From assembly GCA_964527425.1 (NCBI GenBank), contig CAZGOA010000003.1:97048-161047 (forward strand): a DNA stretch of 64,000 nt, given 5' to 3'. Numbering within the stretch: the stretch's first letter is position 1; each line of letters starts with the position of its first letter. Shown one piece after another: positions 37,918 to 62,916 of the stretch. The translations under genes were made by a program, and so were the position numbers. Origin of the DNA: an uncultured Gammaproteobacteria bacterium (GTDB taxonomy: Bacteria > Patescibacteriota > Microgenomatia > UBA10105 > UBA927). The notes beneath the pieces are model-generated. The model saw only the letters and a list, made by a program, of their open reading frames with translations. It did no database searches and was not told the DNA's origin.

Positions 37918-37918
37918 A

Positions 37919-39187: not shown

Positions 39188-39192
39188 GGATA

Positions 39193-41256: not shown

Positions 41257-41280
41257 CCCATGGTATACTAAATTATTACT

Positions 41281-43618: not shown

Positions 43619-43692
43619 AGGGCTGTCGTTCAATGGTAGGACAGCGGTCTCCAAAACCGCCAATGCGGGTTCGATTCCCTCCAGCCCTGCCA
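43619..43692 (+). tRNA. tRNA-Trp (anticodon CCA), CCA encoded
   Basis: Acceptor AGGGCTG/CAGCCCT, anticodon stem GCGGT/ACCGC loop CTCCAAA, T-arm GCGGG-TTCGATT-CCCTC (one C-U mismatch). Confidence 0.8.
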
Positions 43693-43960
43693 GCTAAACG
43701 GCTATTTATGGCATAAAATAGCCTTAATATTGCACAAACAATACGCCTAATGATCACACCTGAGTTAGTAGATTAATTTAGATACATATTCAAATTAAAA
43801 GCGGTCTCCACAATCGCTCGGTACTTCGAAGCAGTTTTTGTATTATCTACATCTGGGATAAATAAAAAAATAAAAAATATTGTTGTAACAATCCCACTAA
43901 GACCCGAGGTTGAACATTTACTCCATTTTTAAACCTTAGCATACTTGATACACTGCGAAT

Positions 43961-44476
43961 ATGCCTAAAGTAATACTGTATATCGCACAAAGCCTTGATG
44001 GATATATTGCAACAAAAGACGGAAGCATCTCCTGGCTTGACTCGTACAATACGATCGACTATGGATACAATCAATTCCTCAAGTCAATAGATATCATCGT
44101 CATGGGCTCAATAACCTACGAACAGGTGCTTTCCTTCGGTAATTACCCGTATAACGATAAAATTTCGTATATTCATACGAAACGTCCAATGAACAAACCG
44201 CAAAACGCAGATATTACATTTATGCCAACTTTTTCAAAAAAACTCTATGAAGATCTTGATCCCAATAAAACCGTTTGGATTGTCGGTGGAGCTCATATAA
44301 TCCAAACCTTCATGCAACATAATCTGGTAACCGACTATCAGATTTTCACAATGCCAGTCATTCTTGGGTCCGGTATACCACTTTTTCTTGAAACTAAACC
44401 ACAACATCTTATTGCCCAAACGTCTCAAAAATATAAGAATGGAGTTATACTGACAACTTATACGGTGCATCAATAA
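43961..44476 (+). CDS. Dihydrofolate reductase-like protein (RibD C-terminal domain family)
   Basis: MPKVILYIAQSLDGYIATKDGSISWL...IVMGSITYE...VWIVGGA pattern of the RibD_C/DHFR-like fold. Confidence 0.7.
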   Translation: MPKVILYIAQSLDGYIATKDGSISWLDSYNTIDYGYNQFLKSIDIIVMGSITYEQVLSFGNYPYNDKISYIHTKRPMNKPQNADITFMPTFSKKLYEDLDPNKTVWIVGGAHIIQTFMQHNLVTDYQIFTMPVILGSGIPLFLETKPQHLIAQTSQKYKNGVILTTYTVHQ

Positions 44477-44610
44477 AATCAGTTTGATAACACAATTTAA
44501 AGTAATTTAATAAGCCCTCTACATAGCCTAAAAACGTAATAATAACAGTATATAAATATCCTTCTGTAATACCCAGTGAGACATAGTCCTATAGTATATT
44601 TACGAAAACT

Positions 44611-45357
44611 ATGGTATACTTTTATTTCATATTCTTAATGACTATGGAACAATCTACATACACATATTCTGATCTTGTCGGATCAGTGAAAAAAGCTTAT
44701 GCAGATGCAGACCTATTTTGTGATCGCAACAAATTAGGATTTGTTGATAGCATCACCCACATTAGTCCAGGATCGTTTTTAAGTCGTACTCTCGATCAGT
44801 ACAATGACTTGCTCTGTGGGAATACAAGAGAAACACTGGAAGACATTATTGACAACTTACCAACAAGGAACATTAAAGTATTAGACATCGGCGGAGGGGC
44901 TGGATATGCACTCATGAAATTAAAAGTACTATTCCCCCATATTGAACCGCATCTTTCTGATGAACGGAATACACCTCTGAATATAGTTGATGGGAATGGT
45001 CTACAACTTGGTAAGTTACATGGGCAGCATCACGTAATTTTCCATCATCTGCATCACTTAAAACTGTTTAGAAATAGAGAATTACATAAACAGTTTATGC
45101 TCATCACAAGTGTATTTAGTGCTTATGATGATACAAACGGACCTTTGTGGCCATTTTTTCTTAAAAGACTTCCCCGCCTTCTTGCTCCAGGAGGCAAAGC
45201 GTTAGTCTTTAATGGTATTTCTCCAACATTACACAAAACAACTGAAGCCATGCTAAAAAACTGGGGTATGCACTACGAATTTCATGAGTGTACATCTTTT
45301 GAACCTCATGAATCACAAAGAGGGAAAAAATTTGGTACCACCATAATCTATGCTTAA
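44611..45357 (+). CDS. Class I SAM-dependent methyltransferase (putative)
   Basis: Motif I VLDIGGGAGY and post-II LAPGGKALVF. Confidence 0.5.
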   Translation: MVYFYFIFLMTMEQSTYTYSDLVGSVKKAYADADLFCDRNKLGFVDSITHISPGSFLSRTLDQYNDLLCGNTRETLEDIIDNLPTRNIKVLDIGGGAGYALMKLKVLFPHIEPHLSDERNTPLNIVDGNGLQLGKLHGQHHVIFHHLHHLKLFRNRELHKQFMLITSVFSAYDDTNGPLWPFFLKRLPRLLAPGGKALVFNGISPTLHKTTEAMLKNWGMHYEFHECTSFEPHESQRGKKFGTTIIYA

Positions 45358-45609
45358 GTGTTGATTATGTGAACCAATTAATATAACGTTAGATGCCTTA
45401 CAATTATATTTTTTCGTACAGGTATTTTTACACTTCCTTTGACTCACTGACCAAATGAATTAACTAATTAGATAAGCTATTTTAAAAACTAATTATATCC
45501 ATATTAAACGCGTTAATAACTTTGCTTAATGGTATTTGAATAGGGTTATTGAGGTAAGCACAAAAATTTGACATCAGCACTATCACTTTATAGACTAAAA
45601 TAAACAATT

Positions 45610-46140
45610 GTGAAAAAATCTGCCCCAAAAAAATTTAAAACCAGTAATAAAATACTATTACTTTTTTCATTTATTGCATCTGTATTTATTTTTAGTGTAT
45701 TTTTCTTAGCTAATTCAAAACATTCTTTAGATGTCTTAAGTTTTGCAACTGATAATTCCTTTTCATTAAATGCACCGGTTCCTTCAAAATATATTACTCC
45801 AACCAGAACTTTTGGTACACCTACACCAACACCCTCATACTGTATTGATGGAGTAAATACCATTCAATACAGCACCCCTTGTGGGAAAAATAATTTTAGA
45901 TACATTAACTATACATGTGAAAATAAACAATCATTTAAACAAGGATCGAAAACTTCTTGTAAACCGGTAAATGTATGGCTAGTCTATGCACAACAGGATT
46001 GCAAAGTGTGTTCACTTAGTCCAACTCCTAATCAAACAATTACACCAAGTACAGCACCAACAGTGACTCCTACTGCAACTCCAAAAATTACCCCTACATC
46101 TACACCTACTAGCTCTATATACAAATTTTTTAGTCGATAA
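45610..46140 (+). CDS. Secreted Cys-rich protein with Thr/Pro-rich tail
   Basis: Signal-anchor, 8 Cys in central domain, C-terminal TPTPTPS/TPSTAPTVTPTATPKITPTSTPT repeats. Confidence 0.5.
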   Translation: MKKSAPKKFKTSNKILLLFSFIASVFIFSVFFLANSKHSLDVLSFATDNSFSLNAPVPSKYITPTRTFGTPTPTPSYCIDGVNTIQYSTPCGKNNFRYINYTCENKQSFKQGSKTSCKPVNVWLVYAQQDCKVCSLSPTPNQTITPSTAPTVTPTATPKITPTSTPTSSIYKFFSR

Positions 46141-46471
46141 GAGTTGTAAATCTGCATACATCTTGTTTTTTTATACTAAATTTAGAACAATAATTATGTA
46201 TGGAATTGAATAACACTATTGAGCCTGAAATTCCCTCACAAATCCTGTTCAAAATTCAATTCCAGAATATCCAACTAATAATCTTAGAACTCTCCTACCG
46301 GCTATTTTAGGCGTCTTAATTCTCTTATTCATCGTCTCAGGTGGTGCATATTATTTAGGAACACAAAAAAATTGCTCAACGAATCAAACTCTAAATAACA
46401 ACACTATTGCATCTGTACAACCTGCTCTAACTCAAACCGATTCAAACCTTGATCCAAGTTCTGCTAACAGT

Positions 46472-46936
46472 ATGAATGATGTAAATGTATATAAACATCC
46501 CAAAGCATTTTACACTTTAGAATATCCTGTAAACTGGAACGGCTCGACCGAACCAATACCATCAGAAGTAAAGCAAGAATATGAGGATTATAATATCCGA
46601 AGTAGTGACTATCAGTTATCTGAAGGCTATCCTATATTAGAAAAGGGAGTTGAGATTTTAATAAGAGTAGAAAACTCAAATGAAAAAACAATTGACGAGG
46701 TTTTTAACAAAGACCCATTAGCTCCACAAATAGCCCAGAACAAAATAAAAACTACAGTGGATGGCCAAGAAGCGATTCAGTATGATTATAGTTATGAAGG
46801 ACAGAATGCTACAATAACAGTCTTTCTTAACAATGGCAAATACTATTCGTTAAAATATCGGTATGCAAATAACGCAGATATGCAATCAGAGTTGAATACC
46901 TATCTTAATCTCCTGAAATCTTTCAAAACTGAATAA
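46472..46936 (+). CDS. hypothetical protein; true N-terminus probably upstream (see findings)
   Basis: In-frame TM-encoding sequence 46229-46471 without start codon; ATG at 46200 in another frame. Confidence 0.45.
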   Translation: MNDVNVYKHPKAFYTLEYPVNWNGSTEPIPSEVKQEYEDYNIRSSDYQLSEGYPILEKGVEILIRVENSNEKTIDEVFNKDPLAPQIAQNKIKTTVDGQEAIQYDYSYEGQNATITVFLNNGKYYSLKYRYANNADMQSELNTYLNLLKSFKTE

Positions 46937-47072
46937 TTTACTAGTTAATCTTAAATGCCAAATAAACATACACTTACAACATTCATATACTAGTCTATTG
47001 CGTAAGAATTCTTAAAGCTATATCCATCAACCTGAATTATCTGACCAATTCGTAAAAATCCTGATACAATAG

Positions 47073-48692
47073 TTGTTAGAATTTATAGTTATGCGTTTGA
47101 AACTCTTTTTAATATTTTTTCTTGCGTTAATCTTACGGACTATATGGCTATCAACTCTGCCCAATGGTGTATTTACAGATGAAGTAGTTAGTGGGTATGT
47201 AGGGAGATTTATTTTGGAACATGGTAAGGATATTTATGGGAACACTCTCCCTCTACTTTACTTTGATAAATTTGGTGATTATCGAGTAATTCTTCCTATG
47301 TATCTAAAAGGAGCAGCAACATACATCTTTGGAACGACTGTCTTTGCATTACGGATTGTTCCAGCTGTATTTGGTGCCTTGGCTGTTATTCCTCTCTTTT
47401 ATGTTGTTTATTCTTTAACTAAAAAAGAATCCATAGCTTATCTTTCATCATTCTTTCTAGCTATAACCCCCTGGCATATTCTCTTATCGCGTGCAGAATC
47501 AGAAGGTATTATGGGATTAACACTTTTTCTCTTTGCTATGTACCTTTTTTTGCAGCCTTCTTCTAAAAAAATCTATCTTGGTGGCATACTTTTTTTCTTA
47601 ACATATTTTTTCTACCCTGCTTTTCGACTTACAAGCCCGCTAATTGCATGGCTTTTTTTTCTGTATCCAACAGAAACTAGCAACAAAAAACCGCAAATAG
47701 TTGTTGCAATACTTCTTACGATCATTACGGTTCTAATTATACAAACTCCATTTGGTGGAGGTAGATTTAATCAAACTTCTTTTTTTGCAAATAAAGATAT
47801 TGCAGAAAATATCAATGCAATAAATAGTAACTATGCTCAAGCGCATGGACCCGGAAATGCACGAATAGCATATTTATTTCATAACAGAATAACGGCTTAT
47901 GCCCGGGAATTTATTATTAATTCAGCAACATATGTTTCTCCCCAATTTTTATTCTTATACGGTGGGAAACCTGAGCGATATAGTGTTCCATCATTCGGGC
48001 TTTTACCAATCTTGTTTGGATTCTTTATGTTATGGGGGTTACTAGAAGGTAAAAAGTACAAAAAAATTAATATACTTTTATTTGCTTTTTCCATTATAAG
48101 TATACTCCCCGCTTCTCTCACTGCAGATGACATTCCGAATATCCATAGAAGTCTTCTGCTGAGTATCCCCTTAATACTATTTGCTGCAATAGGATTTAAC
48201 CTGCTCATTCAGCAAAAAAGTATACTTATGAAATCAATTACTATTCTAAGTCTTGTGCTGTTAATTGTAGAACTAATACTCTTTTGGCATCATTATCTGT
48301 ATCTTTCTCCATCGTATAAAAGTGTCTTGAGAGGTGATGGCCTATGGCAGGGAGCTCAAAGACTCATAGAGCTAAAACCCAACTATGAACATATTTACTC
48401 AACGACATTTGAAGATTTTCCTATCTATGTACTTTATCAGATGAACCGATTCGATAGTCATTTTGCAGGAAAATTTACCCATGGTTCATTATATATACCA
48501 CAGCTTGATACTATTACGTTTATTCCCCACCCCTGTCCACAACCTGATGATATAGAAATAAAGGGTGCTACACTACTTGTGGTAAATGGTGACTGCGAAA
48601 TGAAGTTACATGAACATGATAGAAAGTTAGAAACGATTTACAGGAAAGATCAAACTCAAGCTCTGCATTTTATTGAAGTAACGAATCAATAA
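47073..48692 (+). CDS. GT-C glycosyltransferase family 39 (PMT/ArnT-like) membrane protein
   Basis: First-loop acidic motif VFTDEVVSGYVGR, ~11 TM, C-terminal soluble domain. Confidence 0.65.
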   Translation: MLEFIVMRLKLFLIFFLALILRTIWLSTLPNGVFTDEVVSGYVGRFILEHGKDIYGNTLPLLYFDKFGDYRVILPMYLKGAATYIFGTTVFALRIVPAVFGALAVIPLFYVVYSLTKKESIAYLSSFFLAITPWHILLSRAESEGIMGLTLFLFAMYLFLQPSSKKIYLGGILFFLTYFFYPAFRLTSPLIAWLFFLYPTETSNKKPQIVVAILLTIITVLIIQTPFGGGRFNQTSFFANKDIAENINAINSNYAQAHGPGNARIAYLFHNRITAYAREFIINSATYVSPQFLFLYGGKPERYSVPSFGLLPILFGFFMLWGLLEGKKYKKINILLFAFSIISILPASLTADDIPNIHRSLLLSIPLILFAAIGFNLLIQQKSILMKSITILSLVLLIVELILFWHHYLYLSPSYKSVLRGDGLWQGAQRLIELKPNYEHIYSTTFEDFPIYVLYQMNRFDSHFAGKFTHGSLYIPQLDTITFIPHPCPQPDDIEIKGATLLVVNGDCEMKLHEHDRKLETIYRKDQTQALHFIEVTNQ

Positions 48693-48693
48693 A

Positions 48694-49668
48694 TCACCTT
48701 CTTGATTCTAAATGAGAAAGAAGATCGTGGAAATTGCAGGTAGCCAGACAGCATCCCTGATCACCGCTTCCATAATAAACATAGAGCTTTTCTTCTACGA
48801 TAACTGCTCCTTCAGGAAAGGTGACATTATTTACTACCCCTGATTTTTCTGCTTCTGTTTCTGGATGTAATAATGGATGTTCTGTAACGGCTAATACTTT
48901 ATGTGGATTATGCAAATCTAATAATGCAGCATTAATCGTCCATTCAGGATGATGAGCTTTATTAGCCGGACAATAAATAAATACCCACCCAAGATCCGTT
49001 TTTATTGGAACAGCACCAACCTCAGCGCCTCTGAATACTGACTCTGGTGGCTTAAATACTACATTCTTTTCGTATTCATCAATATTCTGTGCCATAAAGG
49101 CAGATGGAGGTCTTTTTACTTCTTCAATATCGTCAAATTTTGCATGCATAATTGAGGATAATGGACTGTCAGCCATCCATGTATACAACATATGATAATG
49201 TCCATGAATTTTTTCAGGAAACAACACTGCAGCTTTTGAAGTCGTATGACGAGGACCAACAATTCCATGTTTTTTCCAGTGTTTAAAATCTTTACTCGTA
49301 GCCAGAGCAATACGCACTTCCCACTTTTCCCAAGTGCCCCCAACTGCCGTATAAAACATAAAATATTCATCATCGATTTTTGTCACTCGGGGATCTTCAC
49401 AACCCAAGATACTCTCATAGTCTTTATCGGGAGAAATAAGAGGCTCATCATGCCGTACAAAATGAATACCATCAGTACTTTCCGCATAGCCAATACTTGA
49501 CATATAGCCACCTTGTTCGTAATTTTTAATGTCATTTGTAGCCCTATAAACCAATCGAAACACGCCATCTTCATACAATACACTCGGATTAAATACAGAC
49601 CCTGCCTCCCAAACACGATCAGGATTCTTTTGCAGAATTGGGTTCTCAGGATGACGATCAAGATGCAT
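48694..49668 (-). CDS. Glycoside hydrolase family 130-like (beta-mannoside phosphorylase/DUF377 beta-propeller)
   Basis: NPIL...WEAGSVFNPSV...YRA, GCEDPRV hallmark block, TSKDFKHWKKHG. Confidence 0.6.
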   Translation of the reverse strand: MHLDRHPENPILQKNPDRVWEAGSVFNPSVLYEDGVFRLVYRATNDIKNYEQGGYMSSIGYAESTDGIHFVRHDEPLISPDKDYESILGCEDPRVTKIDDEYFMFYTAVGGTWEKWEVRIALATSKDFKHWKKHGIVGPRHTTSKAAVLFPEKIHGHYHMLYTWMADSPLSSIMHAKFDDIEEVKRPPSAFMAQNIDEYEKNVVFKPPESVFRGAEVGAVPIKTDLGWVFIYCPANKAHHPEWTINAALLDLHNPHKVLAVTEHPLLHPETEAEKSGVVNNVTFPEGAVIVEEKLYVYYGSGDQGCCLATCNFHDLLSHLESRR

Positions 49669-49844
49669 AATTTTAGTATAGCATTAGTTTACTTTTCTAT
49701 TTCTGCATACTAACCACTATCATACATAAGAAATCTATGATTCATACAGCTGGAACCAAGAGCAATATATACTATCTATGAATTTGCACTTAGAAAATAA
49801 CAATTGTTTTAACCTATTGTATTCAGGTATAGTAACAGAATAGT

Positions 49845-51569
49845 ATGCAGCAACCTGAACAGCAGATATATTACGGACCAGCTCACTTAAAAAATCTCTC
49901 AGCAATTGATACCAACAGAATCCCACAAGTTCCTGCAGATGAAGCAGAACCATTCAGACCCAATAGTATGTGTGAACTGTGTCCTGGGAAAAACTGCAAA
50001 GGGTGTAGTATCAGTCCAGATGGAATTAATTTTATTGGTAATATATTTAACTTAGATGAAGTACCTGTAGAGCATAGACTTGAAGTATCTATCGCATTAA
50101 CAAAAGGTGGTTTTAAAGATAAAGTGACTACGTGGAACGATCCGGACGACACATCAATTCCTCCACATATCAAAAGAAAACCTGTTGCCAATTTTGCATT
50201 TTATAAACCTGAGATTGATGCAACATTTAGTGGACAAATCGACAAACGTGGAGAAATTGCACTTGTAGTATTACAGGGAAACCAATTAGAGACAATCGTT
50301 CAAACAGCACCAAAGCTGATTCCTGAAAACCCAAAGATGTCTACAATGCCCAACCCTATTGCAACTACCGAGGAACCTTCAATAAACACTAGAGTTCACA
50401 CTCAAGATACTCCGACGCATTTCGTCGGCGGAATTGTTCAACAGCCAGAACTTCACCCTTCTGTTCAAGAAAGACCACAAGATTTACCGCTTCAAGAACA
50501 GGTACAATCACATCATTTGCAACAGGAACAGTCTCGTCCCGTTTTTACCTCAGAAGCCCGGCGAAAAGAAACAAATGTGTCATTGCACTCTACAATTCAG
50601 CCAAATCCTCAAGTAGAGAGAAACTTGCCTCTACAAGTATCAAGAGAGCAAACAAGAGAGAAAACAAGAATTCAATCGACTGAACTACTATTTATACCAC
50701 GAGAACAAGTTACTAACTGGATTACACCTCAGGAAAACGACTGGGAGTTAACAGTGCCAGATCAATACCAACCGCCAAAAAAAATCTCCCGTAAACGGTA
50801 CAGCAGAGAAACACCAGTGCGTCCCATCATTTCGAGAGAAACGCCAACAGATGAACCGCTCACTTCTACCCCTTTTGAAAAAATGATTCAAACTCATACA
50901 GAAGCAAAATATATGTTATTTGAGTTTCTTACAGAATTAACTCCACAACCATCAATAGATTCAAGCACTTCTACTGAAACACAACAAGTACCTAAAGAAT
51001 CAAATCAGTTTAAACCCACACTGGAGATTACAACCAGCAAGCCTCTGCAGCTTATTAAACAATTTTTAACAGCAAGTGGAGCGCAAGAGAAAACTATCTC
51101 AGGATATTTTACACCAGATACGAAACAGGAAGTTGTTATTATTGATTATATTCTCCCAATATCTGAACAAACATTAGACGCACAATCAATATCTACACCA
51201 GAACAAACAATTGCTTTACAATCAACATCTACTCCAGAACAAACTATAGTATTGCAACCTGAACCCAATTCTGAACAAATGATTATTAAAATAATGAACA
51301 AAAAAGATGGAGAGACAACAATCATACTCTCAGAAACGGCTGCAAAAACAATTATTAATCGCTTAAAAACATACGTTTCCTCTCAAGTTATATCAGAAGA
51401 TATTGAAATTGCTCCACAAGAAGATCATTCACGAATTGCCAATATCGTATCACCATATTCTGATACGTTCATTGGGTTTATCTTAATTTCCACAGTACTC
51501 TATATTAATCAGTTACTGGCAATGAATACTATCTTTGAAGAATTACCTATCAATTCAACGACAATTTAA
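49845..51569 (+). CDS. Tail-anchored low-complexity (Q/P/T/E-rich) protein with N-terminal Cys4 knuckle
   Basis: CELCPGKNCKGC near N-terminus; ~300 aa Q/P/E/T-rich; imperfect tandem repeats (STPEQTIALQS/TSTPEQTIVLQP); single C-terminal TM FIGFILISTVLYINQLLAM. Confidence 0.5.
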   Translation: MQQPEQQIYYGPAHLKNLSAIDTNRIPQVPADEAEPFRPNSMCELCPGKNCKGCSISPDGINFIGNIFNLDEVPVEHRLEVSIALTKGGFKDKVTTWNDPDDTSIPPHIKRKPVANFAFYKPEIDATFSGQIDKRGEIALVVLQGNQLETIVQTAPKLIPENPKMSTMPNPIATTEEPSINTRVHTQDTPTHFVGGIVQQPELHPSVQERPQDLPLQEQVQSHHLQQEQSRPVFTSEARRKETNVSLHSTIQPNPQVERNLPLQVSREQTREKTRIQSTELLFIPREQVTNWITPQENDWELTVPDQYQPPKKISRKRYSRETPVRPIISRETPTDEPLTSTPFEKMIQTHTEAKYMLFEFLTELTPQPSIDSSTSTETQQVPKESNQFKPTLEITTSKPLQLIKQFLTASGAQEKTISGYFTPDTKQEVVIIDYILPISEQTLDAQSISTPEQTIALQSTSTPEQTIVLQPEPNSEQMIIKIMNKKDGETTIILSETAAKTIINRLKTYVSSQVISEDIEIAPQEDHSRIANIVSPYSDTFIGFILISTVLYINQLLAMNTIFEELPINSTTI

Positions 51570-51570
51570 A

Positions 51571-53055
51571 TTATAAAGTCTTGGCTTCTTCTAGTTCTAC
51601 CCAATATTGTGTTTCGTTATAAATATCCTCTGGATGTACCCGCTTCCAATCTAGCATTCTCAACATACTACTCGATGATGAAGTTACATCAAACACGGCT
51701 TTATTTTCATCATGAATAAGTAAAGTTCCACTTACAGTCCCCACAAATGGATACGATAACACTGCTAATTTTGTAGCATCTGAAGCAATACGACCCTCAA
51801 TATCTAAATACGTACTTAACATCATTCCCTCAACTGCTGATCCTTTTTTATGAACATAGACTGAAAAATTATCTTGAGGAAATCTATCTTTTATTATTTC
51901 CAACCAATATCTGGTTCTTTGATCTGACCTGTTGGTTCCCTGTGAAAGTTCTTTAACTGTTCGATAAGAAGAACTCAAGAGCACAATAAGAGCAAGTGCG
52001 ATTCCGATCCACTTTTGCTTCTGGATGACTCTGTATACTGCTGCTGTAGAAACAAGAAGTATGAGCGGGTGCATCGATACTAGATAACTAGAAAAAATTG
52101 GGGTACGAGTGTACCGTGCTATACCGATCATAATCCCCAAACTAACAATACATACTAGAACAAATTTCTTTTGAACACTTCCACTTCTTAAAAAAGGTGC
52201 TACTAAAAAACTGCCGATCATTAACATACCACCAAGTACCGCATTACCTCCGATAATATGTCCCCATTCTGCAGGCATAAAAACACTGATAAACGTTTTC
52301 CACCGTCTATTGAGTACTTCTAGAGAAATATTGTACTGATCATAAAGAATATAGTGCTTCATGTTTTGAAGATTCATAAAATCATGACGCAAATCGTAAA
52401 GCAGTATAGGAATAGTCGGGACAAAACATCCCAAACCTAAAGCAATCAGCCCTTTTAACCCAGAAAATCCGAATGCTACCATTGAAACCAATATTAACAC
52501 CACTAATGAAACTCCTTGTAAGTGAATCGTTGCACCCAAAGAAGCAAAAAAACCCATGAAAAACAAAAATCTCAATTGTTTTGTTTTACCATAAAAGAAA
52601 AGAGATAGTAATAAACATAGTGAAACAAGTGATAAAGGTGACTGGTTGGTTAGATTAACAGATTGGGCAATTTGAGCTGTTGAAACAGCCGTAAATAACC
52701 CTAACAAAAGGCCAAAAGACGTATTGATTAACTTATAGCCCAACCACATTAACCCCACGACAAACATGCCATAACAAATAGTTAAAAATATCCAGGGACT
52801 AATAAGAGAAGGAAGATAAAAGACCGACCCAATCATAATAAACCAATACCAAACGCCGCTTGTCTGAAATGGACCTGCAGAAGAAAATGGCCCAAGCAGC
52901 GGAATTTGCCTCGATTCGATTGCATACCGTGCAATCATGACATCATGTATTTGATCATAGGCTAGTCCCCATCTATCAGGATATCGATAAAATCGTAAAA
53001 AGAAGGCCAAAATTACAATACAAACTGCTGCGATAATTACAATATTCCGTTTCAT
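51571..53055 (-). CDS. GT-C glycosyltransferase family 39-like membrane protein
   Basis: N-terminal TM + loop YPDRWGLAYDQIHDV, ~12 TM, C-terminal soluble domain. Confidence 0.6.
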   Translation of the reverse strand: MKRNIVIIAAVCIVILAFFLRFYRYPDRWGLAYDQIHDVMIARYAIESRQIPLLGPFSSAGPFQTSGVWYWFIMIGSVFYLPSLISPWIFLTICYGMFVVGLMWLGYKLINTSFGLLLGLFTAVSTAQIAQSVNLTNQSPLSLVSLCLLLSLFFYGKTKQLRFLFFMGFFASLGATIHLQGVSLVVLILVSMVAFGFSGLKGLIALGLGCFVPTIPILLYDLRHDFMNLQNMKHYILYDQYNISLEVLNRRWKTFISVFMPAEWGHIIGGNAVLGGMLMIGSFLVAPFLRSGSVQKKFVLVCIVSLGIMIGIARYTRTPIFSSYLVSMHPLILLVSTAAVYRVIQKQKWIGIALALIVLLSSSYRTVKELSQGTNRSDQRTRYWLEIIKDRFPQDNFSVYVHKKGSAVEGMMLSTYLDIEGRIASDATKLAVLSYPFVGTVSGTLLIHDENKAVFDVTSSSSSMLRMLDWKRVHPEDIYNETQYWVELEEAKTL

Positions 53056-53108
53056 AAGAATTTATAAACTATATCAATTATCGTCTTTTTCCATAATCAA
53101 AGTAGTTT

Positions 53109-53594
53109 TTATGATAAGGATTTATAAAATCTGACTACCCAGGGAGAATATCCTAAGTCTACATAGAGTTCTTGTGCTTTTTTATTTTCGTTATCTACAT
53201 TATTGAGAATAATATGCTGACATCCTCGTTGTTTACACTCCGTTTCCAGCGCTTTCAATAAGGCACTTCCTATACCCTGTCCTCTGTATTCCATGCTGGT
53301 ATAAAGATCCCATGCTTCTGCGCGCTTTGTCCCTTGATAATATAACGTTTCTGATTCGTTATATGCATGTATTTCACCAATTACAAAACCAACCAGCAAA
53401 TTTTCTTCTTCTGCAACATAGACAATATACTCTTGATGCGTTGTTAGAAGGTTAAAGTAGTGCTCACCAATATCAGAATTAAAGGCAACGGGATATATTC
53501 TTTCTTGAACAACACACTCTTTTACATATTCAAGACAGATCGTAATAAACTGTTTTTTATCCGTTTTTTTAAGAAGTCGTATAGCAATATTCAT
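53109..53594 (-). CDS. GNAT-family N-acetyltransferase
   Basis: Motif A YRGQGIGSALL. Confidence 0.75.
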   Translation of the reverse strand: MNIAIRLLKKTDKKQFITICLEYVKECVVQERIYPVAFNSDIGEHYFNLLTTHQEYIVYVAEEENLLVGFVIGEIHAYNESETLYYQGTKRAEAWDLYTSMEYRGQGIGSALLKALETECKQRGCQHIILNNVDNENKKAQELYVDLGYSPWVVRFYKSLS

Positions 53595-53678
53595 AGCGGT
53601 AGTATATCAAAAGAAATAGTAGATATACCTCAGATATATTTGCTATTATGGGATTCTTATTTAGGAGTTTTTTAAAGG

Positions 53679-54263
53679 ATGAAGCGCAGGATCAGAAGAA
53701 TATTATTTTTCAGTCTATTTTTTTCTATAAGTATACCGTTATTTTTGTTCATTCCGTTTTTTCAATCAAGAGAACAGCCTGCAACACAAAAAGAATATTG
53801 GTTTATGCTGTATCGATCATCAAATAAAGAACTTCTCTATTATGGAATACCAGGAGAGCGAGAAAACAGCACGCTGATTAAACAATTTACTGTCAAAACA
53901 GGTGAACCAGGGGAAAAACCTACCCCTCTGCCTACTCTTCTCGGGAGAGAACATTGGAATATCGTCAATGCGTTTTCCACTCAAGACCATCCAGATACTG
54001 CACCATATTTTTTAACGCTCGATATACCACATTCTGATCAAGAACCATTTGGGCCTACACCCTATGAAGAATGTAATGGTCAATGCAATTGGGAACTCCC
54101 AGGTCCATTTGGACTTCATGGTGTAGCCTCTGATTCCTCAAAATTAACAAAAGATAATCCGGGTTCATCTGGTTGTATACGACATACTGATGAGGATATT
54201 TCATATTTATTTTCATTGCTGAACAATTCATGGCCAGTGCGTTACTATATACAAGACGCTTAA
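53679..54263 (+). CDS. L,D-transpeptidase (YkuD domain) with N-terminal membrane anchor
   Basis: Catalytic motif FGLHGVASDSS...SSGCIRH. Confidence 0.8.
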   Translation: MKRRIRRILFFSLFFSISIPLFLFIPFFQSREQPATQKEYWFMLYRSSNKELLYYGIPGERENSTLIKQFTVKTGEPGEKPTPLPTLLGREHWNIVNAFSTQDHPDTAPYFLTLDIPHSDQEPFGPTPYEECNGQCNWELPGPFGLHGVASDSSKLTKDNPGSSGCIRHTDEDISYLFSLLNNSWPVRYYIQDA

Positions 54264-54264
54264 T

Positions 54265-55320
54265 ATGCATATTAAAATTATTGTCATCATTCTTATTGTA
54301 GGAGTGTTTCTTTCCGGAGTATTTTTTTACGTGGCTAAACGCACGTCATCAGCGATAGAAACCCCTGAAACAGTGCAGTCTGTCATACCCAGTATCACTC
54401 TACCGACCCCAACCCCTTTTCCTTTCCAAGAACTTACTATTCCCTATTTACGTACCAAGTCGTATGAGAGCTCTTTAGGTCCCCTAACGCTTCATAACCG
54501 CTACTCTGCATATACATCCTATTTAACCAGCTATACATCAGATGGATTAACCGTCAATGCTCAACTTACCAAGCCAACCACGCAACAACCAGAACAAGGA
54601 TTTCCAGCCATAATTTTCATTCATGGATACATCCCTCCAGCACAATATCAAACAACCTCAAATTACAATGCATATGTAGATTATTTAGCAAAAAACGGTT
54701 TTGTAGTATTTAAAATAGATCTAAGGGGACATGGTTCTTCTCAAGGTGAAGCAAGTGGCGCGTATTATTCTTCAGATTATATAAGTGATGTCCTTCATGC
54801 ATATTCCGCTCTCGAAAAAACAGATTTTGTAAATGCACAAGCAATAGGTCTCTGGGGTCATAGCATGGCAGGAAATGTTGCTATGAGAAGTATTGCGGCG
54901 AAACCAGCAATACCTGCAATCGTTATCTGGGCCGGGGCAGTATATACCTATACAGATTTAGCAGAGTATGGCATAGATGATAACAGTTATCGCCCTCCTT
55001 CAAATAACTCTCAAAGACAACAACGACGACAGGAACTGAATAATTTATATGGCCAACCATCTAAAGAAAGTTCCTTTTGGAAACAGGTTGCTCCGGTCAA
55101 TTATGTATCTGATATTCAGGGAGCTATACAAATCCATCATGCAGTAAATGATGATGTTGTCAGTATCAATTACAGCCGCAATCTTACTAACTTGCTAAAG
55201 CAAACATCTGTCACTCACGAATTGTATGAATATCAATCAGGAGGGCATAATATTCAAGGAGCAAGTTTTAATCAGGCGATGCAAAGAACAGTGGAGTTTT
55301 TCAAAAAACACCTGCGCTAA
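54265..55320 (+). CDS. Alpha/beta-hydrolase (S9/dienelactone-hydrolase-like) with N-terminal TM
   Basis: Nucleophile elbow GLWGHSMAG; HG oxyanion motif IFIHGY; ATGC-type overlap with the LDT gene. Confidence 0.7.
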   Translation: MHIKIIVIILIVGVFLSGVFFYVAKRTSSAIETPETVQSVIPSITLPTPTPFPFQELTIPYLRTKSYESSLGPLTLHNRYSAYTSYLTSYTSDGLTVNAQLTKPTTQQPEQGFPAIIFIHGYIPPAQYQTTSNYNAYVDYLAKNGFVVFKIDLRGHGSSQGEASGAYYSSDYISDVLHAYSALEKTDFVNAQAIGLWGHSMAGNVAMRSIAAKPAIPAIVIWAGAVYTYTDLAEYGIDDNSYRPPSNNSQRQQRRQELNNLYGQPSKESSFWKQVAPVNYVSDIQGAIQIHHAVNDDVVSINYSRNLTNLLKQTSVTHELYEYQSGGHNIQGASFNQAMQRTVEFFKKHLR

Positions 55321-55358
55321 TCTATTTGTTTGTCCATTAGAAACCTGATTTATTCTCA

Positions 55359-56099
55359 TTAGAGTCTAAACAAGCTCCCCACCAGATACGCAACGAATGC
55401 TGCCAAGCCTCCGAGTAATAACGATTCACTTAATGTACGAACTACAGATTGTCTGGTAACGCGAAATCGTAAATACCCCAATAATAATAATGCACAAACA
55501 GTAGAAGTTATAGAAAACCAAAGGATATATTGATGATCTGAATAGAATATATAGGGCAATAGGGGTATAACTCCAAACGAAATAAACGATATAAATGTTG
55601 CGACAGCCATTCGTTCCGGTTTTTCCCCTTCGGGATTTTTTAACCCTAATTCTTCCTGCATCATGAAATCAATCCAATATTTTTTATTCCCTGAAATAAT
55701 CGCAGTAAGCTGTCTTGCATGCTCCGGAGAAAATCCTTTTTGTTGAAATATTTCCTGCGTTTCCAGTATTTCAGACTCAATGTTTTGTTCAACTTCTTTT
55801 TTTTCAATTCCCTCTTCGTTTTTATAAACATCATGCTCAGACCGGGTGGCTAGAAAATTACCCAACCCCATAGAAACCCCATCAGCAAATAAATTTGCAA
55901 AACCAAAAATAAGAACTGTTAACACAGGAAGACTCCCCATCATAGACTGTTCGGCCCCGGCAAATCCTGCAACTACCGCAAATGTTGTAATGATCCCATC
56001 TGTTCCTCCATAGACAATCTCACGAAGATATAAAGAAAACGGTGAAATATTATGCTGTTCTTTTAAATGCAGTGTTAAATTTTTAGAAATGTGAGGCAT
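55359..56099 (-). CDS. VIT1/CCC1-family iron/manganese transporter
   Basis: REIVYGGTDGIITTFAVVAG N-terminal signature and 5-TM profile. Confidence 0.75.
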   Translation of the reverse strand: MPHISKNLTLHLKEQHNISPFSLYLREIVYGGTDGIITTFAVVAGFAGAEQSMMGSLPVLTVLIFGFANLFADGVSMGLGNFLATRSEHDVYKNEEGIEKKEVEQNIESEILETQEIFQQKGFSPEHARQLTAIISGNKKYWIDFMMQEELGLKNPEGEKPERMAVATFISFISFGVIPLLPYIFYSDHQYILWFSITSTVCALLLLGYLRFRVTRQSVVRTLSESLLLGGLAAFVAYLVGSLFRL

Positions 56100-56128
56100 G
56101 TATTTATCTTACTGCATAAGTATACTTT

Positions 56129-56653
56129 TTATTGTGATCTTCGTAACTTAGTAACATGATGTATTCCGCGTGTCCAATTAGGATTCAGCCTCCGCAGGAA
56201 AATAAGATCATCTATGATATCAAAAAGATAGTGAACCACGCCTGCTCCCATAAACACTAAAGCCCCAAAGTTATCTATTTGATATGCGACAACACAAATG
56301 CATAAAAAAACGACGGGCGTTAAAATATGATGAAACGGTAAATATGTCTCATGCTTGTGATTTTTTTCGAAAAATCGAATCAGTTGAACAATCTGTTTTT
56401 TTCGAAGATATGTAATGACTGTCTTTGTATACATTGAATTTCTTTTTCTAATAAATAAATAGATAATATGCTCTAAATCCGGAGCGAGTGTTCCTGCAAT
56501 TGCTAACAAAATATGATAACTACTTACTGTAAATGACGTCATTGATGATAAAACGACTAACCACAACATTCCCAACAATATATGAATCCATTCATGTTTA
56601 CCATGCCAAAAAAAAGTGAGAGTAAATAAACTAACTTTGCGCGCAGTCTTCAT
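56129..56653 (-). CDS. hypothetical His-rich polytopic membrane protein (possibly DUF457/YdjM-like membrane hydrolase)
   Basis: 4-5 TM with conserved-looking His positions (HGKHEW, HILL, HKHETY, HHILT). Confidence 0.4.
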   Translation of the reverse strand: MKTARKVSLFTLTFFWHGKHEWIHILLGMLWLVVLSSMTSFTVSSYHILLAIAGTLAPDLEHIIYLFIRKRNSMYTKTVITYLRKKQIVQLIRFFEKNHKHETYLPFHHILTPVVFLCICVVAYQIDNFGALVFMGAGVVHYLFDIIDDLIFLRRLNPNWTRGIHHVTKLRRSQ

Positions 56654-56696
56654 ATATACTCTTTATTACGTTACTAAAATACGAAGAATGAAGCAA

Positions 56697-57590
56697 CTAA
56701 CTATCCAGTTTAAGTTTTTTTAGATATTGCTTAAATTCACCATTTAATTCTTTGTGTTTTAGCGCAAATTCAACTACGGTTTTTAAATATTCTAATTTAT
56801 TACCAGTGTCATAGTAGGTGCCATTTTCTATTTCACACGCATAGACAGGTCGTTTCTTCATCAGTTCTCTAATAGCATCTGTTAGCCAGATTTCATCGCT
56901 CTTTCCCGGCTTTAAAGTATCTAATATCGGAAAAATATCTGGCGTTAAAACATAACATCCATGAGCCGCCAGATTTGAAGGGGCCTCATCTGTTGATGGC
57001 TTTTCAACCAGACTTTTGATCTGCCATGTGGTTCTTTCAACATTAAGGGCATCTACTATTCCATACCGTGAGACATCATCATGCGGAACACGCACTGCAG
57101 ATATAACAGGATCACCATACTTTTCAAACACCTCAATACATTGCTTTGTTCTTGGCGGATCAGAATATATAAATTCATCGCCCCAAATCACTACAAACGG
57201 TTCATCACCAATAATTTGCTTTGCACATCGAACCGGCGTTCCGTTGCCGTATGGACCCTTTTGACGTATGTAAATAAAATTTGCCAGATCAGAAATATGT
57301 TCGATCTCATGCAGAAGTGGAAGCTTTTTGGGCCCCCCCATTCGAAGATTCTCGATTAACTCCATGCTTGGTCTATCAAAATGATCCTCAATTGTTCGTT
57401 TGTGATATCCCGTGACAATAATTATGTCAGTGATTCCCGACTCAACTAATTCTTCCACCACATATTGAATAATAGGTTTATCAACAATCGGAAGCATTTC
57501 CTTTGGCATCGCTTTAGTTTGAGGTAAAAATCTGGTACCAAACCCTGCAGCAGGAATAACTGCCTTTCTAATTTTTTGACCCATATGCAT
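56697..57590 (-). CDS. galU: UTP--glucose-1-phosphate uridylyltransferase
   Basis: KAVIPAAGFGTRFLPQTKAMPKEMLPIVDKPIIQYVVEE signature. Confidence 0.9.
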   Translation of the reverse strand: MHMGQKIRKAVIPAAGFGTRFLPQTKAMPKEMLPIVDKPIIQYVVEELVESGITDIIIVTGYHKRTIEDHFDRPSMELIENLRMGGPKKLPLLHEIEHISDLANFIYIRQKGPYGNGTPVRCAKQIIGDEPFVVIWGDEFIYSDPPRTKQCIEVFEKYGDPVISAVRVPHDDVSRYGIVDALNVERTTWQIKSLVEKPSTDEAPSNLAAHGCYVLTPDIFPILDTLKPGKSDEIWLTDAIRELMKKRPVYACEIENGTYYDTGNKLEYLKTVVEFALKHKELNGEFKQYLKKLKLDS

Positions 57591-57654
57591 GGATTGTATC
57601 TACAGACGAGAAAGAATGTCAACGAAAACAATCAATTTTTTTCAATCGTTTCTT

Positions 57655-57694
57655 CCGATCCGGGAGCGGATGAGGCTACCGATCCGGGAGCGGA
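57655..57694. promoter_or_regulatory. Two copies of a 16-nt palindromic element (CCGATCCGGGAGCGGA) 24 nt apart in divergent galU / large-secreted-protein promoter region
   Basis: ATCCGggagCGGAT inverted repeat at 57657-57670, near-copy at 57681-57694; GC-rich island in AT-rich intergenic DNA. Confidence 0.35.
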
Positions 57695-57775
57695 AATACT
57701 AGAGGCTGTGCTACCTGTTGTGAAATTATTGTCTTGTCTATATCCTACAGGTATAATTTGGTATTATTAGTGCAC

Positions 57776-60430
57776 ATGAAAAAGAGAATTCTACAATTCG
57801 TCGTATTGCTTTATACGACAATCTTCTTCACCACATCTGTAATTGCTACGAAGGGTGGTATTAACGTTGGACCATATTATGATCAATTCCCATTGGTGTC
57901 AGCTGCACTTGGACCGGGCTCCTGGGTGTATGCACTCGGATGTCCAGCAGATGTGGCACGCATGGAGACTGCTTATAGTAGTACCTCCAATCTGAACCTA
58001 ATGATTAGAGCCTATTTAAAGGCAGGCGATGTAGGCACAACAGAACAGGCTGTTCAATTGGCTAAAGACTGGGGACAGGCTCTCAGAGCCCTAAATACAC
58101 CAAATATTGTGTACTTTGTTCCTGCCAATGAAATTAATAACCCTGTTGAAGGATTTGCAGAGCGATCAACCGGACGGTTTAATGAAACAGCATTTGATAA
58201 TCTCCAAACCTATTTAACAACGCTTAGTCAGGAAATTGCCGATGTAAGAGGCACAAAAATAGTTTTATTATCCCCTACTGTTGATCCTGGATTTCTATCT
58301 GATAAGGCTGAAGCACAAAGACCATTTATGCAACGAATCCCTTGGGATAGCTATGATGGAACAGCAGTATCTATGTACGGTGAATATTCGGGACTGTCAC
58401 TCAATACAGCCGCTCACCCAGTAAAACAAGGTGATTTTACCCAATTGCCATTATTGGGAGTAAGCATTACAAAAGGACTCTATATAGTTGAAACTGGTGT
58501 CAGAAACACCAGTGATCCGGGAGTGTTATACGCAGAAAACACCCCCCAGATTATTGATTATCTTTCAGTTCAGACACCAAGCTGGAATGACTCTGTAAAG
58601 TCAGCCATTATTTTCTCTTACAATCCAGATGAAGGCGGAGACAGAAATCCCTGGATTTACAGTGCAACCGGAGTGCTCAATGCACTTAAAAGTAAGGGGG
58701 CTGGGCCACCTGTGCGTCCAACAAATGTAGGACCAGTGGGAAGTTTTGATGGATTAACAGGATGTGTATCGGAAAGTGAAACACCGATATTTGCTGATAA
58801 AGGCGATCAAAACGAACGTGTTAATTTAAACATTCGTCAGACCAAATTGTATAATTCTGCCGCAGCACTATCGGGACTGGCACAAGTATTCTATGGTGAC
58901 GCAAATTATTTTGTTGACCAAGTTTCAGCTGCCATTGCGGCAATCAGACCGAATGGCCCTGGCGTTCTTCCTGATTTCGTTCTTGAAAAGAATGTGTTAG
59001 CAGACACCTTGCCTCAACTACTTCCGGGTGAATATCAAGTACTAACTCAAAAAGAAGAACTTCCATCCCCAGGAAAAATTGGTATAAAACTTGATACCGA
59101 ATCCGCCCCCGCTTCTATACGAGCTTCAGTATATACTCAAAGAGAACAACTGGATACAACAGGTACTGCCAACCAAATTGTAGTAACCCAACAAGTTATT
59201 GATGGAAAAACTGTTGCTCAACCAGCCACCAATGTGGAATGGGCAAAACCGTTACGATCTCTAAATACTGTCTATTGTGCAGTCTCGGCCAACTGTAAAT
59301 TAACGCCAAGTGAGGGTAATGTTGCAAATTTAAGAAGGCCACCACAAATTCTTGCACCTGGAACAGTGCCGAATCAATCAAATACTGGAGAGTCCGTTCA
59401 AACACAGCTAACACCATCCGCTGGTGAAATTCAGTTTAATGAAAACAATATCGACTTATTAGTAAGAATTTTAGCTGACTTAAGTCCTGATCCTTCAACT
59501 GAACAAATCACTGCCAATGCTGAAACTGGATTTGGACTCGTTTCGGAAACGTATATTTCTGACTTTACACCTCCAGAATATAAAGTCGATGGGAAAAACT
59601 ACATTAATGCCAGACTTCCCTACCAGGTGCTTCCGGATTTTTCCCGCAATGCTCGAATGGAAAATGCGTATTCGACAGGCGGCAATGTTGAGGGTCTTAA
59701 TACAATAGCCTTGGTCGTTGAGGATGGTAAAGGTATGGAAGATGGATACAACAAAGTGCTGTGTAGTTCTGTACCATACAAGTCGCCTGAATGGTATAAA
59801 CACTGTTCTGAAAATCTTACACCAAACACCAGTGACTGGGCAATTAATGGAGAAACATCGCCAGTTTCACTCCCTGTTACCGTTCCTCTTGACTCTACTC
59901 CACTTGGGGCAGCTATGACTGAGGCCAGTAGAGGAAAAGCCCCTGCGTGTGTTTTGCAGGCTGTAAACTATATTGAGAATCCAAATTGGACTCCAACAAC
60001 ATCCTGTACCATTAATGCCTGCAGCGCTGCCGGACCGTTTCAAATTACAACAGGTATAGATGGGAACGGCAATACTACTTGTCCACGTTGCGGCTCACTT
60101 GGATACTGTCCGGATGCATGGCCAAATAATTGGCCGATCAATTCCAGTCAGCCTAGCCCGTGTGATGCAAAATTTGCAGCATCTGTGGCTATTGACCTAT
60201 ATAAATCAAAAGCAAGCTACTGGACTGCTCGAAACTTAGGTATAGCACAAACACTATCAGAGAATGCTTCAATTGAATCACAAAAAAACGCAATAATCTT
60301 AGGTGGAGATAGTTATTATGGCAGCTCAGTCAGCATACCTCGTCTGGGAGGATGTTCATATGGAGAGTTTGTCTATAAACACTGTACTGGCGGTAGCTAT
60401 CAATGTGGCGGAGCTAGACCACGTCTATAG
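57776..60430 (+). CDS. Large secreted protein (~885 aa) with Cys-rich C-terminal region; hypothetical (possible cell-wall-active/lysozyme-like C-terminus)
   Basis: ATG at 57776 gives MKKRILQFVVLLYTTIFFTTSVIA signal peptide (ORF-track start 57734 is TTG). C-terminal 200 aa has ~14 Cys and an ...IENP...SAAGPFQIT... segment reminiscent of lysozyme-like folds. Confidence 0.6.
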   Translation: MKKRILQFVVLLYTTIFFTTSVIATKGGINVGPYYDQFPLVSAALGPGSWVYALGCPADVARMETAYSSTSNLNLMIRAYLKAGDVGTTEQAVQLAKDWGQALRALNTPNIVYFVPANEINNPVEGFAERSTGRFNETAFDNLQTYLTTLSQEIADVRGTKIVLLSPTVDPGFLSDKAEAQRPFMQRIPWDSYDGTAVSMYGEYSGLSLNTAAHPVKQGDFTQLPLLGVSITKGLYIVETGVRNTSDPGVLYAENTPQIIDYLSVQTPSWNDSVKSAIIFSYNPDEGGDRNPWIYSATGVLNALKSKGAGPPVRPTNVGPVGSFDGLTGCVSESETPIFADKGDQNERVNLNIRQTKLYNSAAALSGLAQVFYGDANYFVDQVSAAIAAIRPNGPGVLPDFVLEKNVLADTLPQLLPGEYQVLTQKEELPSPGKIGIKLDTESAPASIRASVYTQREQLDTTGTANQIVVTQQVIDGKTVAQPATNVEWAKPLRSLNTVYCAVSANCKLTPSEGNVANLRRPPQILAPGTVPNQSNTGESVQTQLTPSAGEIQFNENNIDLLVRILADLSPDPSTEQITANAETGFGLVSETYISDFTPPEYKVDGKNYINARLPYQVLPDFSRNARMENAYSTGGNVEGLNTIALVVEDGKGMEDGYNKVLCSSVPYKSPEWYKHCSENLTPNTSDWAINGETSPVSLPVTVPLDSTPLGAAMTEASRGKAPACVLQAVNYIENPNWTPTTSCTINACSAAGPFQITTGIDGNGNTTCPRCGSLGYCPDAWPNNWPINSSQPSPCDAKFAASVAIDLYKSKASYWTARNLGIAQTLSENASIESQKNAIILGGDSYYGSSVSIPRLGGCSYGEFVYKHCTGGSYQCGGARPRL

Positions 60431-60489
60431 CTTTGAAAGCTGTCAAAACAAGCTTTGACTTTTATCTTATAAATTGATACTATTGACAT

Positions 60490-60516
60490 ACCCCTCAAAG
60501 GGGTGTTTTGTTATTT
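60490..60516 (+). terminator. Rho-independent terminator after the large secreted-protein gene
   Basis: CCCCTCaaaGGGG hairpin + TGTTTTGTTATTT. Confidence 0.5.
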
Positions 60517-60525
60517 ATAGACCTT

Positions 60526-61402: not shown

Positions 61403-61415
61403 AGAACGACACATT

Positions 61416-62639: not shown

Positions 62640-62789
62640 AAATGAATAAGAAATAAGTATATCATACTATAGCAATTAATACTGGTATGTATAACTATAT
62701 TTTACTGTATATGAACGGTTGAAAACCGTATTCGAGGTAAAAGGACACGTCAGCCTTTACCTGTCAAATTCTTTGTGATATACTACACA

Positions 62790-62890: not shown

Positions 62891-62916
62891 TATAAATATC
62901 TCAATTTTAAATAGAT

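Follow-up and report, generated by a model that had tools for sequence, protein, structure and literature searches.

Piecemeal gene turnover as the probable source of a long, lineage-typical slot between tRNA-Trp and secE in a Gottesmanbacteria-like genome

How did almost 17 kb of DNA come to lie between tRNA-Trp and secE, two members of a widely conserved string of bacterial genes? The question arises in a 64-kb stretch of contig CAZGOA010000003.1 (the window; GC content about 36% over its whole length), where the string tRNA-Thr, tuf, rpmG, tRNA-Trp, secE, nusG, rplK, rplA is recognisable. Gene calls from Pfam and tRNA calls from ARAGORN and Rfam agree with the original prediction, made from the letters of this DNA, that the string is present only in fragments and that its genes lie where they had been placed (Table 1). 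The anchors (tRNA-Thr, tRNA-Tyr, a second tRNA-Thr, rpmG, tRNA-Trp, secE, nusG, rplK and rplA) are all on the plus strand and in canonical order, and tRNA-Trp and secE are 16,833 bp apart, a distance taken up mostly by genes for envelope and secreted proteins. The gene tuf is indeed missing, as no frame of the window contains the EF-Tu G1 motif GHVDHGKT. Here, we propose that the interval contains a lineage-typical flexible gene slot within a conserved string, and that it was filled by piecemeal turnover of native Candidate Phyla Radiation (CPR) genes and not by integration of a mobile element, a reading to which we assign a probability of roughly 0.7.

What is ordinary about this locus, and what is peculiar to it, can be judged from its relatives. 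A scan seeded with NusG, with one genome kept per species, yielded 80 related loci (L001-L080). The best NusG matches were metagenome-assembled genomes (MAGs) of Candidatus Gottesmanbacteria (83-91% amino acid identity), followed by Levybacteria and other Microgenomates and then by Parcubacteria; judged by its sequence, the window belongs to a Candidatus Gottesmanbacteria-like member of the CPR. The proteins and tRNAs of the window were mapped onto the 10 kb upstream of nusG in all 80 loci, and the open reading frames (ORFs) between tRNA-Trp and secE were clustered for 32 Gottesmanbacteria loci.

Much of the arrangement recurs. Gottesmanbacteria share the order tRNA-Thr(GGU), GDSL hydrolase, rpmG, PsbP-like gene, tRNA-Trp, a variable interval, mem174 and galU (both on the minus strand), a gene of about 2 kb, secE, nusG, a further variable interval and rplK. 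The GDSL gene keeps its position in 10 Gottesmanbacteria loci (42-57% amino acid identity), the PsbP-like gene stands between rpmG and tRNA-Trp in 12, and 10-12 loci have the whole string from GDSL through rpmG and PsbP-like to tRNA-Trp, its members 9-90 bp apart. At the other end of the gap, galU lies upstream of secE in 46 of the 80 loci and in 21 of the 32 clustered Gottesmanbacteria loci, and the family of the large secreted protein (C0, 550-970 aa) is directly upstream of secE in 28 of these 32. In the 10 kb upstream of nusG, a tuf motif turns up in just one of the 80 loci. Outside Gottesmanbacteria, in Levybacteria and other Microgenomates, galU is divergently oriented 74-400 bp upstream of secE, and nusG and rplK are tightly spaced. 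In L037 and L045 the order is Thr-Tyr-Thr-rpmG-Trp, a few kb, and then galU-secE-nusG-rplK, again without tuf; these two are the most compact relatives, with 1.6 kb between tRNA-Trp and galU in L045.

The part of the gap from mem174 through galU to the 884-aa protein (about 4.4 kb; 56.1-60.4 kb) is ancestral to Gottesmanbacteria, and the GDSL gene, the PsbP-like gene and the absence of tuf are inherited lineage features. The C0 gene would itself be a Gottesmanbacteria-specific insertion between galU and secE. Three parts of the original prediction do not survive this comparison: the 17 kb is no single insertion, with mem174, galU and C0 kept beside secE in 20-28 of the 32 Gottesmanbacteria loci; the lack of tuf is not a local peculiarity, being the state of the whole lineage; and the GDSL and PsbP-like genes, which had been listed as intervening, are lineage-ancestral. 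At the position of msrB, none of the 80 loci, which are the more distant relatives, has a match, and the spacing from the PsbP-like gene to tRNA-Trp is 649 bp in the window against a median of 48 bp in relatives. The arrangement is thus real but ordinary for its lineage, and about 12 kb of it is a species-specific fill.

This fill occupies the interval from tRNA-Trp to mem174, which we call the variable slot. The same position, with tRNA-Trp on one side and mem174, galU, C0 and secE on the other, is present in 9-12 loci, and in the 9 relatives with both ends in range the slot measures 534-3191 bp. The 11 genes from RibD_C through the alpha/beta-hydrolase were found in none of the 80 loci within 10 kb upstream of nusG. 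The twelfth, VIT1, was found there in L009 only, where it likewise adjoins mem174 and galU (59% identity). Relatives fill the slot with other genes: setting aside the families C0, C1 and C2, the 32 loci hold 124 slot ORFs, and the full set, with C0-C2 and the genes of the window included, falls into about 94 families. Among the families in relatives are YkuD (12), cohesin (9), PKD (9), dockerin (7), flavokinase (7) and Wzy_C (3), along with regulators, a Zn-ribbon membrane protein and YdjM genes. The slot of the window has none of the recurrent families C3-C8, and the YkuD gene of relatives is a different gene, usually placed between mem174 and galU.

The content of the slot in the window is mixed, with two GT-C glycosyltransferases, a GH130 protein, a YkuD protein and secreted orphans, but also VIT1, RibD_C, GNAT and methyltransferase genes. 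Most of the genes originally named for the gap were found again by Pfam. The methyltransferase match is weak and below the cutoff, the second GT39 label holds by homology only, and the inventory had left out the alpha/beta-hydrolase and mem174. That second glycosyltransferase, mem494, has no direct match in Pfam, NCBIfam or the PDB; its homologues (E 1e-105 to 1e-120) carry PF13231 (PMT_2), and some are named GT39 by NCBI. The two GT-C genes were considered as paralogues, and this was rejected as there is no BLAST similarity between them.

Where might the fill have come from? In composition the slot matches the rest of the window, with a GC fraction of 0.365 against 0.368, a GC fraction at third codon positions (GC3) of 0.274 against 0.265 and a codon bias of 0.289 against 0.296 (Mann-Whitney p = 0.79 for GC and 0.20 for GC3). 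A foreign origin of the slot was rejected on these values, which show no deviation, and on the PHROG search of six slot genes, in which only the DHFR family, for RibD_C, was matched. Homologues of the GH130 gene form a graded series of 98, 85, 81, 78, 72 and 70% identity. The homologue at 78% (L093) occupies the same tRNA-Trp slot in another Gottesmanbacteria-like genome, where all its neighbours are different (IMS polymerase, SRAP, methyltransferase and PolA), those at 81% and 70% (L091 and L095) are located elsewhere, and at 85% identity both flanking genes have already changed. A conserved pairing of PMT and GH130 genes was likewise discarded, as the neighbours of GH130 differ in L091, L093, L095 and L100. 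Homologues of mem494 are Microgenomates proteins that lie inside large glycan-biosynthesis clusters elsewhere in the genomes of relatives; in chromosome OY970230.1 the homologue and the secE locus lie about 640 kb apart. The two genes traced in this way, GH130 and mem494, thus have their homologues in other CPR/Microgenomates genomes. Metagenome scans found nothing for mem494 and, for VIT1, only relatives of at most 50% identity, mostly on short contigs; the JGI metagenomes gave no further genus-level context.

Turnover can be seen directly against a sister lineage, L097, which is 93-96% identical in nucleotides, has the same gene order and keeps the slot block. A 672-bp segment with RibD_C (43918-44589) is present in the window and absent from L097. 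Conversely, L097 carries a 966-bp segment (13744-14709 of that contig) encoding a 265-aa, weakly GNAT-like protein; the segment lies within the encoded CCA of tRNA-Trp (CCCTGCC/T...), and a short copy of the tRNA terminus, TGCCAG, is found at its far end. A further 349-bp indel separates the two lineages. Ten of the 12 slot genes have a ratio of nonsynonymous to synonymous substitution rates (dN/dS) against L097 of 0.04-0.34, so that most of these genes are functional and under purifying selection, and not debris. The 574-aa orphan, at 84% amino acid identity, has the value of 0.34. The remaining two genes appear to be under relaxed constraint, with 0.75 for the methyltransferase and 0.55 for the 176-aa secreted orphan.

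We also note that dS against L097 is uneven. Between 39.8 and 48.7 kb most genes have values of 0.05-0.13, apart from the short rpmG (0.17) and PsbP-like (0.21) genes, and from GH130 to galU the values are 0.17-0.34. This hints at a recombination mosaic between lineages.

Was the slot filled through its tRNA gene? If so, one or more integrative elements targeting tRNA-Trp would have built the gap, their integrases and attachment (att) sites having since decayed and their composition having been ameliorated. Several observations are what tRNA-targeted integration would be expected to leave, and they weigh against piecemeal turnover: the slot starts exactly at the 3' end of tRNA-Trp, the single-gene cassette of L097 sits within the CCA end with the TGCCAG copy on its far side, and the RibD_C segment beside the tRNA is present in one close lineage and absent from another. 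Selfish elements do visit such positions, as GIY-YIG/T5orf172 proteins occur in the slots of 2 loci and a RAYT/IS200-like protein occurs between nusG and rplK in L001 and L028. Five slot or boundary genes, four of them slot ORFs, have no family, and a very divergent recombinase could be among them. On the same side of the balance, the 10 same-species contigs (99.6-100% nucleotide identity) are identical in gene content, with no presence/absence polymorphism of the slot; and in 11 relatives the slot lengths of more than 3.8-6.3 kb are lower bounds only, with tRNA-Trp beyond the 10-kb flank and collinearity with it assumed.

The tests for an island nevertheless failed on integrase, att repeat and deviating composition alike, and at the tRNA edge L097 keeps the block, differing by its cassette and the RibD_C segment. 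Among the 12 slot genes Pfam gave no match to recombinase, transposase or phage families, and the PHROGs gave no mobile-element family for the six slot genes scanned (those without a Pfam match or weakly annotated). The 3' end of tRNA-Trp has no second 17- or 25-nt copy with up to 3 mismatches in the 64 kb; a Hamming scan of 43.7-61 kb returned only chance-level matches, which lie in coding regions and differ at 10 of 28 nt, and a general repeat search of the window returned nothing relevant. GC, GC3 and codon usage in the slot do not differ from those of the remaining window, the genes, of CPR type, are found in ordinary chromosomal glycan clusters in relatives, and viral contigs hold no relatives of either tRNA-proximal cassette, that is, of RibD_C or of the L097 protein. 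Hence we consider tRNA-targeted elements an unlikely source of the gap. The earlier statement that there is no integrase and no repeat of the tRNA-Trp 3' end is upheld, degenerate repeats included. As for repeated insertion at a tRNA hotspot, turnover at the tRNA-Trp end stands, given that each related species examined has a slot of its own length and content and that L097 shows indels there; integrase-mediated insertion does not. The prediction had named shared gene order with uniform composition as the picture that would speak against it, and what we find is half of that picture: the composition is uniform and the slot content is species-specific.

Might the whole 17-kb arrangement be ancestral, with the shorter slots of relatives produced by repeated deletion during genome streamlining? 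CPR genomes are reduced, the composition is uniform, GH130 is in the same slot in L093 and VIT1 is beside mem174 and galU in L009, all of which would fit such a history. It is, however, difficult to reconcile with the absence of 10 of the 12 slot genes from the slot in all of the roughly 20 related species, with the presence there of the recurrent families C3-C8 that the window lacks, and with the fact that the more distant Microgenomates (L045 and L037) are the most compact. The mem494 homologues in distant glycan clusters and the change of both GH130 neighbours already at 85% identity also speak against it, and we think it improbable that deletion explains the locus. An artefact is far harder still to credit. 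The sequence is metagenome-derived, and tRNAs are frequent break and join points in assemblies, so that unrelated contigs could in principle have been joined at the tRNA by assembly or binning; the arrangement from tRNA-Thr to galU is nonetheless repeated in 10 independent SRA assemblies from at least 5 SRA projects (99.6-100% nucleotide identity), L097 has the same order, and a separate contig links the gene for the 884-aa secreted protein to secE, nusG and orf407.

In light of piecemeal turnover being the preferred reading, what might its course have been? We infer that the ancient string kept its order and that the joints between its transcription units became tolerated landing places for other genes. 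A first layer, Microgenomates-wide, comprises a string without tuf and galU head-to-head with secE. A second, Gottesmanbacteria-wide, would have brought in the GDSL and PsbP-like genes, mem174 beside galU, and the Cys-rich secreted protein between galU and secE. In a third, at the species level, the tRNA-Trp/mem174 and nusG/rplK intervals would act as flexible slots that exchange their content in the course of evolution. The mechanism is most likely to have been piecemeal translocation, gain and loss through recombination, illegitimate as well as homologous, among related CPR genomes. Insertions would be tolerated, with expression of the essential genes undisturbed, since the slot separates units that are transcribed independently, as indicated by a hairpin after tRNA-Trp and by mixed gene orientations. 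A terminator-like hairpin lies just 3' of tRNA-Trp (43700-43723), and upstream of secE there are a terminator-like hairpin with a T-run (60488-60506) and a promoter-like site (60455-60483); the promoter and terminator scan, in which promoter-like sites were rarer than in shuffled sequence, is relied on for the two hairpins only.

The nusG-rplK interval is the second of these slots. It spans 61403-62916 in the window and 68-4853 bp in Gottesmanbacteria, and the 52 ORFs counted there across 23 loci fall into 38 clusters. The window has orf407 in this place, an orphan without a homologue in the 80 related loci. The stretching that had been described between tRNA-Trp and secE is confirmed there, and it extends also downstream, at orf407, and upstream, through tRNA-Thr(UGU), tRNA-Tyr and tRNA-Thr(GGU). 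A bolder proposal is that the tRNA-Trp-secE and nusG-rplK intervals are dedicated, integrase-independent acquisition sites that swap single-gene envelope cassettes, including at the CCA end of the tRNA. We regard this as doubtful. If true, it would make the region a surface-diversification locus for host-dependent or phage-exposed CPR cells, situated beside the gene of the Sec translocon that exports its products.

How does the slot compare with known variable loci? Like tRNA-associated genomic islands, it lies directly 3' of a tRNA gene and its content differs between close relatives at the tRNA edge; unlike them, it has no detected integrase, att direct repeat, compositional deviation, or mobility or phage genes. 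A second comparison is with replacement-type flexible islands, such as the variable surface-glycan locus of enterobacteria, the O-antigen cluster between galF and gnd. Such islands likewise have a fixed position between core genes, one flank of galU/galF type, non-homologous content and no integrase, and an abundance of glycosyltransferases, Wzy-like proteins, enzymes that cross-link peptidoglycan, and surface proteins may be common to both. Here, in contrast, the variation is between species and not between strains. The slot combines different functions (transporter, reductase, hydrolase and orphans) and encodes no coherent polysaccharide pathway, and relatives have their large glycan clusters at other positions.

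The closest published parallel is a study of the tufB-secE-rpoBC cluster in Gammaproteobacteria and Bacilli, in which rpmG and tRNA-Trp belong to the secE operon, and the tufB operon counts as a “variable tail” that the cluster lacks throughout the Bacilli (PMC8046335). In these genomes, small unrelated groups of genes inserted between operons are recurrent and inherited within lineages, with no evidence of distant horizontal gene transfer (PMC8046335). The window has the anchor genes of this conserved tufB-secE-rplKAJL cluster, collinear and in the same orientation, with tuf missing. The two settings differ in that the study dealt with Gammaproteobacteria and Bacilli and connected operons if less than 10 kb separated adjacent genes, whereas here the genome is of the CPR and 16.8 kb lie between tRNA-Trp and secE; in addition, the joints here are re-filled with different genes in each species.

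The locus thus offers a layered example, from the CPR, of a highly conserved gene string that has been loosened with its order kept. It also carries two cautions for annotation. A missing tuf and extra genes around secE are normal in Microgenomates and are not a sign of a mobile island, and adjacency to a tRNA is not on its own proof of integrase-mediated insertion. The anchors (tRNA-Trp, mem174-galU, C0-secE, nusG and rplK) can help to locate variable envelope genes in Gottesmanbacteria MAGs, a practical value that is modest, and they flag an uncharacterised, lineage-conserved secreted family (C0) beside secE.

Table 1. Features of the tRNA-Thr to rplA region, in window coordinates
Feature	Coordinates	Strand	Basis and remarks
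tRNA-Thr(UGU)	35129-35203	+	ARAGORN, Rfam; first anchor of the stretched tRNA string
ArsR-family regulator	35242-35550	-	splits tRNA-Thr(UGU) from tRNA-Tyr
Eukaryote-type Ser/Thr protein kinase	35587-36582	+	splits tRNA-Thr(UGU) from tRNA-Tyr
tRNA-Tyr(GUA)	36593-36678	+	ARAGORN, Rfam
tRNA-Tyr/tRNA-Thr(GGU) interval: GNAT, ABC ATPase, FtsX permease, split HlyD/YknX adaptor, sec188	36754-41093	.	Pfam
sec188, secreted protein	40527-41093		beside tRNA-Thr(GGU); same neighbour in L009, L025, L093
tRNA-Thr(GGU)	41185-41258	+	ARAGORN, Rfam
GDSL hydrolase	41281-42114	+	Pfam; occupies the place of tuf in other bacteria
rpmG (ribosomal protein L33)	42233-42406	+	Pfam, E 1.1e-17
PsbP-like secreted protein	42460-42969	+	weak PsbP_2 match
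msrB (SelR)	42964-43479	-	Pfam, E 1.7e-45
tRNA-Trp(CCA)	43619-43692	+	ARAGORN, Rfam; left edge of variable slot
Variable slot, tRNA-Trp to mem174	43693-56128	both	12,436 bp, 12 genes
RibD_C/DHFR-like reductase	43961-44476	+	Pfam; PHROG DHFR family
Putative methyltransferase	44611-45357	+	Methyltransf_23, E 4e-4, below cutoff (weak)
Secreted PT-rich orphan, 176 aa	45610-46140	+	no Pfam, NCBIfam or PHROG match
Orphan, 154 aa	46472-46936	+	245 aa in sister lineage
GT39/PMT-type GT-C glycosyltransferase	47073-48692	+	PF02366, 26.4 bits (cutoff 22.7)
GH130 beta-mannoside phosphorylase-like	48694-49668	-	PF04041, E 7.7e-46
Orphan, 574 aa, Q/P/T-rich, C-terminal hydrophobic segment	49845-51569	+	no Pfam, NCBIfam or PHROG match
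mem494, second GT-C (GT39/PMT_2-like) membrane glycosyltransferase	51571-53055	-	label by homology
GNAT acetyltransferase	53109-53594	-	Pfam
L,D-transpeptidase (YkuD)	53679-54263	+	Pfam
Membrane-anchored alpha/beta-hydrolase (S9/S33-like)	54265-55320	+	Pfam
VIT1 Fe/Mn transporter	55359-56099	-	Pfam
mem174, 174-aa membrane protein	56129-56653	-	cluster C2, 20 Gottesmanbacteria loci; right slot edge
galU (UTP-glucose-1-phosphate uridylyltransferase type)	56697-57590	-	Pfam NTP_transferase
884-aa secreted protein, Cys-rich C-terminal domain (family C0)	57776-60430	+	ATG at 57776; database protein P0121 identical
secE	60508-60738	+	Pfam; in-frame ATG at 60526
nusG	60749-61402	+	Pfam
orf407, 407-aa orphan	61416-62639	-	no Pfam, NCBIfam or PHROG match; no homologue in the 80 related loci
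rplK (L11)	62917-63342	+	Pfam
rplA (L1)	from 63355	+	Pfam; runs off the window

What the secreted protein beside secE does can be approached through its family. No member of C0 has a Pfam match, and the 884-aa protein also has none in NCBIfam or the PHROGs. A single-sequence search of the PDB was empty. A family-wide profile gave a weak match to MltC (E 0.0026-0.007), which a subfamily profile, with no PDB match, did not reproduce. The C-terminal domain of the family has conserved E...GP(F/M)Q...YYG motifs, and an AlphaFold model built from an alignment of 4 sequences was discarded at a pLDDT (predicted local distance difference test) of 30. A lytic-transglycosylase (SLT/MltC-like) C-terminal domain in the 884-aa protein is thus a candidate assignment and unconfirmed. 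One C0 homologue, P0124 (L102; 44% identical), adjoins not secE but genes resembling those of a type IV secretion system (TraG/VirD4, PrgI and TraC-like).

Upstream of the slot, tRNA-Thr(UGU) is contiguous with tRNA-Tyr and tRNA-Thr(GGU) in the compact relatives L045 and L037, with only a few bases between tRNA-Thr(UGU) and tRNA-Tyr. In the interval that follows tRNA-Tyr in the window, the HlyD/YknX-type membrane-fusion gene of an ABC/FtsX efflux operon is split into two ORFs, 39193-39669 and 39810-40385, both on the minus strand. The identical contigs L083 and L085 have the same split, and the same-species contigs L081 and L086 (99.6% nucleotide identity) have an intact 394-aa gene. Either a frameshift variant segregates in the population or the same homopolymer error has recurred.

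Two further observations concern the first part of the window. A complete 16S rRNA gene is present at 6707-8295 (minus strand), with no 23S or 5S gene detected in the 64 kb, and the rRNA genes appear to be unlinked. Finally, a 496-aa protein encoded at 863-2353 (minus strand) has an N-terminal VKOR (vitamin K epoxide reductase) domain fused to a dihydroorotate dehydrogenase domain.

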